NCBI GenBank assembly: GCA_964426185.1
Contig: CAYRPF010000016.1
Coordinates: 16,191 to 48,190, forward strand
Source: an uncultured archaeon
GTDB lineage: Archaea; Asgardarchaeota; Lokiarchaeia; Sigyniarchaeales; Promethearchaeaceae
Direction of reading: 5' to 3'
Length of the DNA stretch: 32,000 nt
A program made the position numbers and the translations under genes. Of the stretch, positions 16,820 through 22,355 are shown in pieces. The notes under the pieces were generated by a model. The model was not told the origin of the DNA and searched no databases. It saw only the letters and a list, made by a program, of their open reading frames with translations. How positions within the stretch are numbered: position 1 is the stretch's first letter; every line of letters starts with the position of its first letter.

Positions 16820-19237
16820 TTAACTGATTTCTATCATCGACCATATCGTAGCAGCTAATGATAAATTTCCAGAATAAAACCATTTTAAGCCAATCGAAAA
16901 TAACAGCCAGTTAATTTGCTCCGAAAAACCATAAAATTCCTCAATAAAGGTGAAGCTGTTAAACTGTTCCAAGAAATTAATCATGTTAGGAGTAGGCAAG
17001 TTAATAAATTCTGCCACTAACGATGCATTCATGTATTTTACTATTTCAGGAATTTCGGCTTGTTGATTCATTAAGCGCACTGCGTTTAAAAAATTTACAT
17101 AAATATCCAGCGAAGAAAATTGAAATGAACCAAGATAATCATCCCAATTATTGGAAATTTGGGCTAATTTTAAATGAGAAAGTAAAATTTTTTGGGGTAG
17201 CAAATCTTCATTTAAGTTCCCAGTTAAATAAATTTGAAAGTTTTGTAGTCCTTCTCCCAATTTTGCACGCCTGGTAATCAGCGGATTACGAGGAATCATT
17301 AAAACTTGGGGTCCTCCCCTTGGATTCTCATAGACGTAGAACTGATGGGGTATTTTTTCAAACTTGAAATAATATAAGGAATTAGTAGGAAGGTTGATAC
17401 CGTGGCTGCACAAAAATTCTATCTCAGCTTGATTTAATACTTTACCTTGATTATGCTTTTTAAGATACACATATATCTTTTTTAAAGATTTAGTTTCAAG
17501 ACTATCTTGAACAAAATTATCTACTGCGGTGGTTGAAATTAGTCGGGTTTGATTTGGATCGATAATTTGGGTAGATTCGTGAGATGAAAACCATGTCGAA
17601 TCAATTAATGAATTGGTTATTTCTTCAGTGTTTTTAGAAAAAGGGGCTGTAATAGTATCAAGATTCGGTGCAATTGACTCAGGAAGTAAATCTAAATCCA
17701 TATTTTGGGTCATATTTTCTTTATTGGCTTGAGAAGAGAATAAAATTTGAGTTTTATTATCTAAATCGGCATTTTCTTGCTGATTTTGGAATAATTTTTG
17801 GGGTTGATAATCTAAATGTAAGAAATATTTTTGCTTTTTCATCTCCTCAATTTTCTGCCAATTGACTTTGGGCTTTAATTTTTCAATTTCTTGGGCGATT
17901 TTCTGCGTATTTTTTTCCATATTTATTTCATAGCTGAGTAAATGGAGCTCTTCCAATAATAGGAATATTTCTTCAGTATTTTGTTTTTTTCTTGCCTCTT
18001 GAATCGCCTTTGATATGATTTTATACCTGATTTTATTGATTTTTTCCAATTCAGCTTGAATCTTCTTAATTTTCTTAGCATTCTCACTTTTTTGATAATG
18101 GTATTTTGCTTCATTTAGATAAGATACTTTTTTTTGTAATTCTTCTGGTGAAATATCAGAAAGATTATGGGCTTGGGATGTTGCAAAATCCCCCTGTTTT
18201 TCATAGAATTGATGGATTTCTCCAGAAATGCGTGTCAATTCCTTCTTTGCATTAATTTCTTTGAAAATATGATATGCTTTTTCATAATATTCTAATGCAA
18301 TCTTGGTATCGTTTTGAGTCTCTAATTCTTTGGCTTTGTTCTCATACCACCTTCCAAGTTGGATATTTACTTCCAGGAATTTAGTTTTAGCTTGCTTCTT
18401 ATGGCTTTCATCTCCAATAGAGTGGAATTTTGTATAAGCAGATTTATATTTCTGGATACTGGCACAATATTCATGTTGTTGGGCAAGCATATCTCCATGA
18501 TTGAGATCGATATATGCCAGTTTGCTAATTAACTTCATCTGTGCTTTTTGAAACATTAATGTGATTTTCTTTGGATTTTCTTTTTCTTTTATTAAATTCT
18601 TTATTTTTTGCCACGTTTCGAGCGCCTGAATGATCTTATCTTGCGATATTACCTGATCAAATTTATCGAGTAAGTAGTAGGTTATTTCTTTTTCCACATA
18701 TTGCTGAATTTTTTGGAATTCTGACTTATTTGGATTGAAGAATTTAGTCAATTGTGGAATGCGTAAGAAGAAATCCGTATAAAGTAATGAGACATAACCA
18801 AATAAGTTAATAATTTCCGAAAAATGGCGTTCTAAATGGCGTCTCTTTAGTTCTACACTCCGAATAGTGGTTAATACCTTAAAAACCCATGTTTCAAAGA
18901 GTTTAAATGCATTTTTTGAGTTATTAATCAAAGTTTTATCAAAATCATTTAAAAATTGATAAAGTGAATTTTGGAGATCCAGCAAATTGATTAAAAAAAC
19001 ACTCGATTTGCGGTCATCATTACCTCGAACTGCTTCTTCAGCCTTTGCCAATTGCTTATCAAAGAGAATTTTTAGACAGAGAATAAAATTCTGCTCTACT
19101 TCAAATCTGTCCGTTGGAGATAGAATTTCGCTGTTACGTTTTAAATAATAGAGGTATTTTAATGCAGGTTGAAATTGTCCACTTTTTAAGAACCTTACTG
19201 CTTTTGCAACAGTAATTTTAGGGGGATTACCAACCAT
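16820..19237 (-). CDS. Large helical-repeat (TPR/SNAP-like) protein with a low-complexity linker and an unknown C-terminal domain
   Basis: Repeated TPR-like helix pairs (GDMLAQQHEYCASIQKYKSA; AKELETQNDTKIALEYYEKAYHIF; KVSYLNEAKYHY) and a polar linker at about aa 475-585. Confidence 0.65.
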   Translation of the reverse strand: MVGNPPKITVAKAVRFLKSGQFQPALKYLYYLKRNSEILSPTDRFEVEQNFILCLKILFDKQLAKAEEAVRGNDDRKSSVFLINLLDLQNSLYQFLNDFDKTLINNSKNAFKLFETWVFKVLTTIRSVELKRRHLERHFSEIINLFGYVSLLYTDFFLRIPQLTKFFNPNKSEFQKIQQYVEKEITYYLLDKFDQVISQDKIIQALETWQKIKNLIKEKENPKKITLMFQKAQMKLISKLAYIDLNHGDMLAQQHEYCASIQKYKSAYTKFHSIGDESHKKQAKTKFLEVNIQLGRWYENKAKELETQNDTKIALEYYEKAYHIFKEINAKKELTRISGEIHQFYEKQGDFATSQAHNLSDISPEELQKKVSYLNEAKYHYQKSENAKKIKKIQAELEKINKIRYKIISKAIQEARKKQNTEEIFLLLEELHLLSYEINMEKNTQKIAQEIEKLKPKVNWQKIEEMKKQKYFLHLDYQPQKLFQNQQENADLDNKTQILFSSQANKENMTQNMDLDLLPESIAPNLDTITAPFSKNTEEITNSLIDSTWFSSHESTQIIDPNQTRLISTTAVDNFVQDSLETKSLKKIYVYLKKHNQGKVLNQAEIEFLCSHGINLPTNSLYYFKFEKIPHQFYVYENPRGGPQVLMIPRNPLITRRAKLGEGLQNFQIYLTGNLNEDLLPQKILLSHLKLAQISNNWDDYLGSFQFSSLDIYVNFLNAVRLMNQQAEIPEIVKYMNASLVAEFINLPTPNMINFLEQFNSFTFIEEFYGFSEQINWLLFSIGLKWFYSGNLSLAATIWSMIEIS

Positions 19238-19300
19238 AGATAATAGTAAAACATTCCACCAAAAAAATCCTTACCATCAAAGAGATTACACGGATTTTTT

Positions 19301-20434
19301 TTATCTTGGTGTAACGAAAATATTCAAACCAGAATCATCTATTTCGGTAAATGACTCAGATTTATTCTTTTCAATTTCTGTAATTTCCTGCCAAATTTCA
19401 ATTTTTTTCCGATTAATTAACTGTAAAAGATAAAGAACTGTTTGAACTATACCTTCAGGTTCTGGAGAAATTATAAGAGAAAGAAACGAAACTGGGCAGT
19501 TAGGCTTATAACATTCTTTAATTTTTTGGTATAAATCCGATATCTGTTCTTCCACATATACTCGCTTTTCTTCCGCCTTTTTTAAAAGATTTGCATGCAG
19601 AACATTATCTGGGCTTTTAGTCAGTGGAGAAAATTTCAATGTTTTTGAAGGCGTACGAATTTGAGTTTTAAACGTTTTTATCAAAGCGGAACCTAATTCA
19701 GAGAAATTTACCTTGCGATATACCTTTCGTAAAGGTGAAGATAAATAGCGGTTTCCGTCTCGATCTTGGTTGAAGAAGCGATTAATTGATGTCATTTGCG
19801 CCAACATAGCATTCCTTTCTTGTAAGTACTGCGATAATTGCGCATCATCTACAATTTCGGTGTTATTGTCAAATGCTTGACGTTTTTGTGATTTACCTAA
19901 AATTGATTGCATAGATATCTTTCTATTGGCGAAGGAATCATCATCTTCGAAATCTTCATCATTATTTTGGAATTCATCTTCCAAAACTTCAATTTCTTCT
20001 AAAAAGTCTTGGGTATTTTGAGAATCATGCAGAATACTGGTTGATTTGACATTTATTAAACGTGAAGTCGAATAAAGAACCCGACCTCCTATCCGAAGTT
20101 GAATCTCGCTGTTGGAGTATAATCGCTTTTGAATTTTTTCCAAAGTGGATTTAACATCTATTTGCCATGGATTCTGTTTGAGTAGCTTGGAAAATTCATC
20201 AGAATCAATTAGTATCCCCAAATCTGCAGCTTTTTGGGAAATATTCAAATTTGCAGAAGAAGAAAATGAAGAAGAATTTATGTGTGAGATGGAAGGTGGA
20301 GATTGAATGTAGGGATAAGAATGAGAGGAAATGCTATTTTCAATATCTTTTACAATATTCGAGTGATTTTGATTCGATTTTTGAAAATTTTTCTTCAAAT
20401 CGTTATCATTGTTTAATTTAAAGTCGTTGTTCAT
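19301..20434 (-). CDS. scpA: Kleisin ScpA (segregation and condensation protein A)
   Basis: NPWQIDV...LRIGGRVLYSTSRLINVKS N-terminal domain; PLRKVYRKVNFSEL; C-terminal winged helix VSFLSL...VQTVLYLLQLINRKKIEIWQE...IFV. Confidence 0.85.
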   Translation of the reverse strand: MNNDFKLNNDNDLKKNFQKSNQNHSNIVKDIENSISSHSYPYIQSPPSISHINSSSFSSSANLNISQKAADLGILIDSDEFSKLLKQNPWQIDVKSTLEKIQKRLYSNSEIQLRIGGRVLYSTSRLINVKSTSILHDSQNTQDFLEEIEVLEDEFQNNDEDFEDDDSFANRKISMQSILGKSQKRQAFDNNTEIVDDAQLSQYLQERNAMLAQMTSINRFFNQDRDGNRYLSSPLRKVYRKVNFSELGSALIKTFKTQIRTPSKTLKFSPLTKSPDNVLHANLLKKAEEKRVYVEEQISDLYQKIKECYKPNCPVSFLSLIISPEPEGIVQTVLYLLQLINRKKIEIWQEITEIEKNKSESFTEIDDSGLNIFVTPR

Positions 20435-20679: not shown

Positions 20680-20988
20680 ATGATAGATTCAAAGGCTATT
20701 AAAGCAATAATTTCTAAATTTATGCAAGATGAACAGACACGCGCTGTTATCATTTGCGATTCAGAAGGACTACCTATTCAATCTTCCTATCGAGGGGAAC
20801 AGATCGAGAAAACTGAAGAAATTGCGGCTTATATTACGGCATTAATCTCACGAGGGAAGCAAACCGTTGAAGTTTTAGGAGAAGGGCGTTTGAATTTTGT
20901 TCGTTTAGAAACCGATAAAGGAGAAGTCATGATTGCTCCTCAGGAAGGTTTAATTTTAATTGTGTTACGAAATACAACAGAAATATAA
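20680..20988 (+). CDS. Roadblock/LC7 (MglB/LAMTOR-like) domain protein
   Basis: AVIICDSEGLPIQSS...EEIAAY...GRLNFVRLETDKGEVMIAP..LILIVL. Confidence 0.9.
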   Translation: MIDSKAIKAIISKFMQDEQTRAVIICDSEGLPIQSSYRGEQIEKTEEIAAYITALISRGKQTVEVLGEGRLNFVRLETDKGEVMIAPQEGLILIVLRNTTEI

Positions 20989-21060
20989 TTTTTAAACATT
21001 AAATTTAAATTACTAATTTTTATCGCTAATTTTTTATAGATTTTTAACTAATTGACATAT

Positions 21061-21402
21061 ATGAACATCGAAGAAGTGGGACCGAAATTAGCTGCCGCAA
21101 TGGATGCTGTTCCAGTTTGTGAAGGCTTAATATTGGCAAAAATAAGCGGGGAAGTATTGATTGGACAAACTCTTACAGAGCTGAATCATGGAGAAATCGC
21201 TAAATCTTTTAGTAAACTTTTCGAAGTGGACTTTTCTTATTTAGAAAGAGGAAAATTGCAAGATTACACCATTAATTTGGAAAATGGGTCAATTATTGCG
21301 GTTAGAAATGAAGATCATATGTTGATTGGTTTACTTGGTGCTGACGGGAAATCTTCTGTTGGTTTATTAGTGAGGCAATTAAGAAACATTATGTGGAAGT
21401 AA
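21061..21402 (+). CDS. Roadblock/LC7 domain protein with C-terminal helix
   Basis: EGLILAKISGEVL...GKLQDYTINLENGSIIAV...SVGLLVRQLRNI. ATG 21061 preferred. Confidence 0.8.
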   Translation: MNIEEVGPKLAAAMDAVPVCEGLILAKISGEVLIGQTLTELNHGEIAKSFSKLFEVDFSYLERGKLQDYTINLENGSIIAVRNEDHMLIGLLGADGKSSVGLLVRQLRNIMWK

Positions 21403-21947: not shown

Positions 21948-22355
21948 ATGAGTAAACGACGCGAATTATATGTACTTGATAAAGGTGGTCAAATATTATA
22001 TTACTTTTCCACAAAATATGACTCAAAAGAAGATCAATCCATGCTTCTTACAGCAAGTTATCTAACTGGTGTATTGCAATTTGCCCGCCGGGCATCAGGA
22101 GACTTTATTTCCACTTTCGAATTGGGAACACTTCGAATAATGTTACGAGTTGGGAAAAATTTACCTCTTTATTATGTCTTAATTGCAGGAAAAGAAACAA
22201 AAATTAAAGAAAAACAAATTGACCAGATGTTAACTGCGATTATAGAGGCATTTGAAGAAATTTGCACACTTGAAAAATTAAACAATTGGAGTGGAAATAT
22301 TTACGAATTTGAAGAATTTACTCCAAAGGTCAAAAAAATTCTGAAGGTTAAATAA
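21948..22355 (+). CDS. Longin-like domain protein (Asgard eukaryotic signature protein)
   Basis: LYVLDKGGQILYYF beta-hairpin, LTASYLTGVLQFA helix, YYVLIA strand, and LTAIIEAF...WSGNIYEFEEFTPKVKKIL. Confidence 0.75.
   Translation: MSKRRELYVLDKGGQILYYFSTKYDSKEDQSMLLTASYLTGVLQFARRASGDFISTFELGTLRIMLRVGKNLPLYYVLIAGKETKIKEKQIDQMLTAIIEAFEEICTLEKLNNWSGNIYEFEEFTPKVKKILKVK

Follow-up and report, generated by a model that had tools for sequence, protein, structure and literature searches.

KITE subunits of SMC (structural maintenance of chromosomes) complexes, such as ScpB, MukE and Nse1/3, are tandem winged helices, and the HAWK subunits of condensin and cohesin (CAP-D2, CAP-G, Scc3/SA, Pds5 and Scc2/NIPBL) are large alpha-solenoids. 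Further helical-repeat proteins, namely MAU2/Scc4, which is built of tetratricopeptide repeats (TPRs) and binds Scc2 rather than the kleisin, and the alpha-solenoids Nse5/Nse6, act as optional loader or regulator modules and not as ring subunits. Eukaryotic condensin and cohesin swapped KITE subunits for HAWK solenoids, with elongation of the kleisin. A dedicated study reported that no HAWK is known in prokaryotes and that HAWK acquisition in eukaryotes went with kleisin elongation (bioRxiv 10.1101/2024.01.07.573240). In the current study, we analysed a 32,000-nucleotide window on contig C16 of a Lokiarchaeal genome (3.26 Mb, 92% complete, same genus as Candidatus Harpocratesius repetitus FW102), in which the gene of an elongated ScpA-type kleisin (P0001, 377 amino acids (aa)) is followed by that of an 805-aa helical-repeat protein (P0002, here termed the partner).

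A literature search retrieved no paper describing this pair. The kleisin belongs to the ScpA family and the partner is a TPR-like protein of no described family. We propose, at a probability of roughly 0.4, that the partner serves this SMC complex as a lineage-specific and dispensable accessory or adaptor, without belonging to its core or taking over from the KITE subunit. The original prediction, that of a kleisin-binding solenoid encoded in place of scpB, stands in so far as the kleisin is real, its neighbour is a large alpha-solenoid and their adjacency is conserved, and is weakened by the lack of any sequence match of the neighbour to HAWK, KITE or other Pfam or NCBIfam families and by the separability of the two genes in three genera (g2, g3 and g4).

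The kleisin and its helical-repeat neighbour

The two genes were found as predicted at 19301-20434 and 16820-19237 on the minus strand, kleisin gene first, with a 63-base pair (bp) spacer between them. The gene upstream of the kleisin (20680-20988) lies on the plus strand, so that scpA is, as claimed, the first gene on its strand and opens its transcription unit. The features discussed below, with the evidence for each, are as follows.

19301-20434, minus strand: scpA-type kleisin gene (P0001, 377 aa), first gene of its unit; open reading frame and orthologue-profile matches to 6ivh_A and 4i99_C
19994-20212, minus strand: N-terminal helical domain of the kleisin (about residues 75-147), a homologue of the SMC-neck-binding domain; Rad21_Rec8_N at residues 82-147 and 6ivh_A profile
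19583-19993, minus strand: kleisin extended middle region (about residues 148-284); orthologue alignments
19745-19882, minus strand: kleisin insert (about residues 185-230), candidate docking motif; alignment of eight partner-linked kleisins
19385-19582, minus strand: C-terminal winged-helix domain of the kleisin (about residues 285-350), a homologue of the SMC-cap-binding domain; 4i99_C/5xns_C profile and NCBIfam ScpA at residues 282-350
19238-19300, minus strand: spacer of 63 bp with inverted repeat and T7 run; direct sequence reading
17804-19237, minus strand: P0002 N-domain (residues 1-478), TPR-like alpha-solenoid; AlphaFold2, Foldseek and VIA-align
17507-17803, minus strand: P0002 variable low-complexity linker (residues 479-577); poor alignment and length variation
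16820-17506, minus strand: P0002 conserved C-domain (residues 578-805) and stop codon; 35 invariant columns and AlphaFold2 predicted local distance difference test score (pLDDT) of 69
20680-21402, plus strand: two divergently transcribed roadblock/LC7 genes; Robl_LC7, E 5e-12

By homology, P0001 is a true but divergent and elongated ScpA kleisin that retains the SMC-binding ends. As a single sequence it matches the Pfam families Rad21_Rec8_N (E 5.4e-4) and SMC_ScpA (E 8.2e-4) below the Pfam cut-offs, failing the gathering score of PF02616 with 19.9 bits against 24.6, and PF02616 is matched at E <= 0.01 by four of 13 kleisin orthologues (best 3.8e-5). This sub-threshold score reflects divergence and not a missing fold. 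A profile built from the 13 orthologues matches the archaeal ScpA N-domain 6ivh_A at E 1.2e-11 (profile positions 61-119 against residues 18-76 of 6ivh_A) and, at profile positions 271-329, the C-terminal winged helices of ScpA in 4i99_C (E 1.1e-10) and 5xns_C (E 5.7e-10), and these matches to solved domains identify P0001 as a genuine kleisin with both of its SMC-binding ends. Residues W90, G117 and K130 of the N-terminal domain are invariant in the orthologue alignment. The middle region comprises, in order, an acidic run, a lineage-specific insert and the canonical P-x-R-K-V-Y-R strand/helix, with residues of about 222-262 aligning to residues 85-123 of 6ivh_A in the profile.

Partner-linked kleisins measure 367-397 aa, against 299-323 aa for the P0001-type kleisins of families f3 and f4, and other Asgard ScpAs, which are shorter by about 100 aa, lie in open frames of 225-297 aa within classic smc-scpA-scpB operons. 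The insert, with invariant D224, G227 and R229, is present in all eight partner-linked kleisins and is absent or unalignable in the partner-less kleisins of genome G005 and of families f3 and f4. We infer from this alignment a candidate docking motif for the partner, although insert and elongation represent a single evolutionary event, so that their correlation with the partner is suggestive only. This pattern parallels the elongation of eukaryotic kleisins that accompanied the HAWKs.

Concerning the partner, an alignment of 11 homologues revealed two conserved parts separated by the variable linker. AlphaFold2 models the N-domain with confidence (residues 1-478, mean pLDDT 88.8) as a solenoid of TPR-like helical repeats, with 19 helices as far as residue 472. 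This bears out the claim of helical repeats over the first 460 or so residues. From residue 223 onwards the model shows a repeat period of about 54 residues, a long helix being followed by a short one. Foldseek returned matches at probability 1.00 to the TPRs of LGN/Pins, APC5, Tom71, OGT and Ctr9 (E from 3e-5), with low TM-scores of 0.11-0.18. The best VIA-align score was Z 11.5, to a Bacteroides TPR protein (4i17), with Z 9-11 to Sec17/alpha-SNAP, LGN, 14-3-3 and sNASP, values that fall in the range common for helical repeats generally; Separase (Z 7.9-8.1) and gamma-SNAP/Sec17 (Z 7.9-11.1) score on a level with generic TPR proteins. The caveat attached to the original prediction, that the repeats looked TPR- or SNAP-like rather than HEAT-like, was therefore well placed. 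The proposed structural comparison had named CAP-D2/G, Scc2/3, Pds5, MAU2/Scc4 and alpha-SNAP; only the last appeared, level with generic TPR proteins, and no HAWK (CAP-D2/G, Scc3, Pds5, Scc2) or MAU2/Scc4 chain occurs in the top 50 of Foldseek, the wide VIA-align search or a second look, an absence from lists that excludes no family.

Sequence searches with P0002 gave a similar picture. At E <= 1, hmmscan against Pfam-A produced only sub-threshold matches to DUF3791, TPR_12, PriX and MIT and none to HAWK, MAU2 or PF04079 models, no NCBIfam or PADLOC family was assigned, and HAWK-family models of the Cnd1, Cnd3, STAG, Pds5 and Nipped-B type went unmatched in Pfam-A and NCBIfam. The PADLOC defence models match neither kleisin nor partner. 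Pfam does not recognise the canonical 34-residue TPR (TPR_12 scores 13.6 bits at E 0.077, its cut-off being 30.1), and the weak MIT matches of P0002 (E 0.77) and of relatives (3.9e-4 and 6.4e-5) were judged to be generic TPR-like similarity.

The C-domain (228 aa) contains 35 invariant alignment columns and was modelled with medium confidence (pLDDT 69) as helix-helix-three strands, a beginning that could be winged-helix-like, followed by a helical bundle. It has no Foldseek match in the PDB at E <= 0.001, no usable match in the ESM Atlas and a best Z of 5.9 in the wide VIA-align search; its profile reached E 0.016 at best against PDB sequences, and the papillomavirus E1 relationship that this match would imply was judged to be chance. 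The first half of the domain, with the signature N-x4-L...NLP...P-V-x2-P...G...A-W, also occurs in other architectures, namely P0022 (462 aa, with a zinc-finger-like N-terminus), 738-aa proteins (P0024) and a 170-aa stand-alone form, which marks it as an uncharacterised mobile domain. The partner family as a whole comprises 35 proteins in a profile search of 1.84 billion representatives; among 41 related genomes it is present in 12 of the 13 belonging to the family that includes Harpocratesius, Promethearchaeum and Lokiarchaeum, and in none of 27 from sister families.

Conservation of the pair and its SMC set

The synteny check, made across related genomes of the order, supported the pairing. 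The kleisin gene is followed on the same strand by the partner gene, with gaps of 6-68 bp, in all eight assemblies, from four genera, that have both genes on one contig (G000, G001, G007, G008, G010, G011, G012 and G013). These include Harpocratesius repetitus, Lokiarchaeum ossiferum B35 (G010) and Promethearchaeum syntrophicum MK-D1 (G011), so that the cultured Asgard archaea keep the pair, and partner identity among the eight assemblies is 22-61% in alignment. The genes downstream of the partner differ between genera. In the window, the gene of a 150-aa coiled-coil protein (P0003; 16099-16551) lies 268 bp downstream of the partner gene, likewise on the minus strand. No family matches this protein, and its conservation is confined to the genus (59% identity in G001).

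The spacer contains a 9-bp inverted repeat, AAAAAATCC(21 nt)GGATTTTTT, that leads into a T7 tract and could be an attenuator or terminator between the two genes. Orthologous spacers of 6-68 bp have T5-T7 runs in most cases, and the inverted-repeat sequence is not kept in other genera. With a gap of 6 bp in Harpocratesius repetitus, co-transcription of kleisin and partner is plausible, the T5-T7 runs of most spacers counting against it. A scan of the locus for promoters and terminators of bacterial type, which is unsuited to archaea, gave nothing above shuffled sequences, and the MK-D1 locus was recovered in one RNA-labelled run as a 39-kb Logan contig of flat depth, which cannot show a transcript or co-transcription.

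On the other side of the kleisin, the roadblock-roadblock-longin cluster noted earlier was confirmed, the longin gene (21948-22355, plus strand) matching Fuz_longin_1 at E 3.6e-8; this gene is not kept at the locus in the other genera compared. The roadblock pair (Robl_LC7, E 5e-12) adjoins the kleisin in six genomes of family f1 and in family f3. Its head-to-head arrangement with a P0001-type kleisin gene is seen at order level, in the window and in G021 and G039 of sister family f3 (L046:2582-3451; L047:1862-2634). In family f3 unrelated genes come after the kleisin (GH57 in G021, a 146-aa open reading frame in G039), and it is most parsimonious that an ancestral Rbl2-Rbl1<>scpA locus gained the downstream partner gene within the present family.

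The window was correctly stated to be devoid of smc and scpB: genome-wide, SMC-hinge matches are confined to contigs C3 and C1 and ScpB matches to C6 and C3. The further suggestion that the helical-repeat gene stands instead of scpB did not hold, as the genome retains an ScpB gene directly after the strong-hinge smc on C3 and a second one in another operon, and no KITE subunit has been replaced. Three SMC-like sets are encoded, on C3, C6 and C1, in agreement with the several SMC complexes described in Asgard archaea (bioRxiv 10.1101/2024.01.07.573240). Set i (C3:63042-67238) consists of a 1203-aa smc (hinge E ~1e-31) followed by a short scpB of 189 aa, with no adjoining kleisin. Set ii (C6:12915-19477) consists of a 1487-aa SMC-like gene, a 381-aa kleisin paralogue and a long ScpB of 295 aa; its SMC-like protein has a split SMC_N head and no detectable hinge, its kleisin is identified as a paralogue by hhalign (83%, E 8e-6) and its ScpB type recurs in 39 of 41 genomes from the order. 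In the likeness of its kleisin and ScpB, no other set comes closer to the standard Asgard smc-scpA-scpB operon, although the SMC-like protein exceeds the usual length by about 300 aa. Set iii (C1:13514-18365) comprises a weak-hinge SMC of 1177 aa followed by 256-aa and 193-aa genes without Pfam match; the 256-aa protein bears no similarity to the kleisin profile, and the weak ScpB match (E 2.7e-6) of the G001 counterpart of the 193-aa gene suggests that set iii might be a kleisin and kite set of SMC5/6-like type.

The strong-hinge SMC, the short ScpB and the P0001-type kleisin follow an all-or-none pattern in the complete or well-assembled genomes among 41 from the order: all three are present in g1, g4, g5, g6, g7, g10, g13 and g17, and none was found in g2, g3, g9, g11, g15 and g16, with a few fragmented assemblies showing one or two of them. 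This co-occurrence identifies P0001 as the kleisin of set i. The strong-hinge set is patchy within the order, being present in nine genera and not found in g15, the largest genus sampled (12 genomes), which suggests that the whole complex was repeatedly lost or transferred.

Possible roles of the partner

The two genes are likely to be a co-expressed unit, of which the first supplies the ScpA-type kleisin of the patchily distributed Smc-ScpA-ScpB set, with smc (1203 aa) and the short scpB on another contig. The second supplies a family-restricted scaffold of TPR-like solenoid, flexible linker and conserved C-domain. If the partner is an accessory or adaptor of the SMC complex, the concave face of the solenoid might bind the kleisin insert with D224, G227 and R229 as an extended peptide of the lengthened middle region, and the C-domain, on its flexible linker, might engage DNA, another protein or some other second client, a contact through which the SMC complex could be recruited or regulated. 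In favour of this proposal stand the identity of the kleisin and its assignment to set i, the conserved same-strand adjacency in spite of differing downstream flanks, the elongated kleisin with its insert, and the TPR-like fold modelled for the N-domain, which is of a peptide-binding type. Gene identities, folds, synteny and phyletic patterns are observed here, and co-transcription, binding and the surfaces in contact are inferred from them. A complex prediction of the whole 805-aa protein with kleisin residues 150-300 scored 0.00 and, having been run without controls, counts neither for nor against such binding.

Several observations weigh against the accessory role, and most of them favour a rival explanation in which the 805-aa protein is a TPR scaffold for an SMC-unrelated process and its adjacency to the kleisin a frozen historical accident in a stable neighbourhood of one family. 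In genera g2 and g3 (G003, G004 and G009; a sample of three genomes, of which one reaches 91% completeness in 40 contigs), a partner orthologue of 1015-1091 aa is kept at the same locus, directly beside Rbl1-Rbl2 with no kleisin between, although these genera are without this kleisin, the short ScpB and the strong-hinge SMC; the protein therefore has a kleisin-independent role. The only kleisin-profile matches there (G004, G009) adjoin a long ScpB, as in set ii, and tblastn at E <= 1e-3 detected no kleisin remnant between Rbl1 and the long partner. Conversely, genus g4 (G005, 85% complete) has kleisin, SMC and short ScpB and no adjacent partner, its distant partner relative of 738 aa being encoded on another contig (G005:C144:6730-8946) beside neither kleisin nor roadblock genes, and the kleisins of families f3 and f4 are likewise without partner. 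Partner without kleisin and kleisin without partner together establish that the partner is not an obligate subunit. Furthermore, T-runs are archaeal termination-like signals, and T5-T7 runs lie in most kleisin-partner spacers. The roadblock genes, presumably unrelated, keep their place next to the kleisin just as well, up to the level of the order, and gene order is evidently sticky here, rendering adjacency weaker evidence of function than usual; all of the synteny, moreover, lies within one family, so that the cases are not independent. The recurrence of the C-domain module in P0022 and P0024 also counts in favour of this rival.

This SMC-unrelated scaffold is nearly as probable as the accessory role. 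Two findings speak against it: the 6-68 bp same-strand adjacency persists in every genome with both genes on one contig although the downstream flank changes, and the kleisin insert and elongation coincide with the presence of the partner. The long forms of g2 and g3 have a linker expanded by about 200-300 aa and keep the N-domain and the invariants of the first half of the C-domain, but over roughly the final 100 residues the majority of invariant positions are gone; this C-terminal divergence after kleisin loss fits the loss of an SMC-specific interface and is weak evidence for the accessory role.

It is improbable that the partner instead serves the roadblock/longin GTPase-regulator genes, for example as the SNAP- or TPR-like platform of a trafficking or signalling module. 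In each of the six genera with a partner, it and Rbl1-Rbl2 do make up a single conserved block, the partner adjoining them directly in g2 and g3, the longin gene lies nearby at 21948-22355, and Sec17/alpha-SNAP is among the tied top structural matches (Z 11.1 and 10.0). However, the roadblock-kleisin arrangement predates the partner, as family f3 has it without one, the partner is on the strand opposite to the roadblock genes with the kleisin between them in four genera, and the SNAP match has a root-mean-square deviation of 12.8 Å and is tied with generic TPR proteins. Far less probable still is a homologue or forerunner of the HAWKs (CAP-D2/G, Scc3, Pds5, Scc2) or of the TPR loader subunit MAU2/Scc4, a notion invited by a large alpha-solenoid encoded after a kleisin with a sub-threshold Rad21_Rec8_N match and by an elongation like that of eukaryotic kleisins (bioRxiv 10.1101/2024.01.07.573240). 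No Pfam HAWK or MAU2 model was matched at E <= 1, the significant matches that Foldseek listed belong to TPR-type or designed helical repeats, the partner family has only 35 hits among 1.84 billion representatives and, among the genomes searched, occurs in one Lokiarchaeal family only, the KITE subunit is retained, and the dedicated study found no prokaryotic HAWKs (bioRxiv 10.1101/2024.01.07.573240).

A more far-reaching version of the accessory role, which we consider doubtful, is that, in the family of the cultured Asgard archaea, a Smc-ScpAB paralogue independently gained a non-KITE, non-HAWK, TPR-like solenoid docking on the middle region of a newly elongated kleisin, a convergent and still dispensable parallel to the KITE-to-HAWK transition from which condensin and cohesin arose.

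Comparison with described SMC systems

Were the accessory role correct, the scpA-solenoid pair of MK-D1 and L. ossiferum would offer a testable case of an archaeal kleisin recruiting a helical-repeat partner, by analogy and not by homology; should the proteins not interact, the finding reduces to a family-specific TPR protein with a new conserved C-domain and is of modest interest. The three SMC-like sets and the patchy strong-hinge set also bear on the debate on SMC complex duplication in Asgard archaea.

The system resembles prokaryotic Smc-ScpAB (B. subtilis; Pyrococcus/Thermococcus structures 4i99, 5xns and 6ivh) in a kleisin with N-domain, central P-x-R-K-V region and winged helix, and in the presence of a cognate strong-hinge SMC and ScpB in the genome. 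It differs in that scpA is unlinked from smc-scpB, that P0001 is 80-150 aa longer than other Asgard ScpAs, that its set is one of three SMC-like sets in the genome, and that scpA is followed by a TPR-like gene which has no counterpart in known Smc-ScpAB systems. With TPR peptide-binding scaffolds (LGN/Pins, APC/C subunits, Sec17/alpha-SNAP, 14-3-3 and sNASP), which provide the best structural matches of the N-domain, the partner shares its general fold; its repeat of about 54 aa, against 34 aa, and a superhelical geometry that must differ given the low TM-scores (0.11-0.18) set it apart from the generic members of this group. The likeness to MAU2/Scc4 and Nse5/Nse6 lies in a helical-repeat protein with a proposed optional accessory role, although no homology was detected and the conserved C-domain is without equivalent in those proteins. 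As for the HAWKs, the partner is likewise a large alpha-solenoid whose gene is tied to that of a kleisin, and docking on an elongated middle region would be analogous; unlike them, its repeats look TPR-like rather than HEAT-like, it shares no sequence homology with them, it does not replace the KITE subunit, and it is dispensable in related lineages and confined to a single archaeal family.

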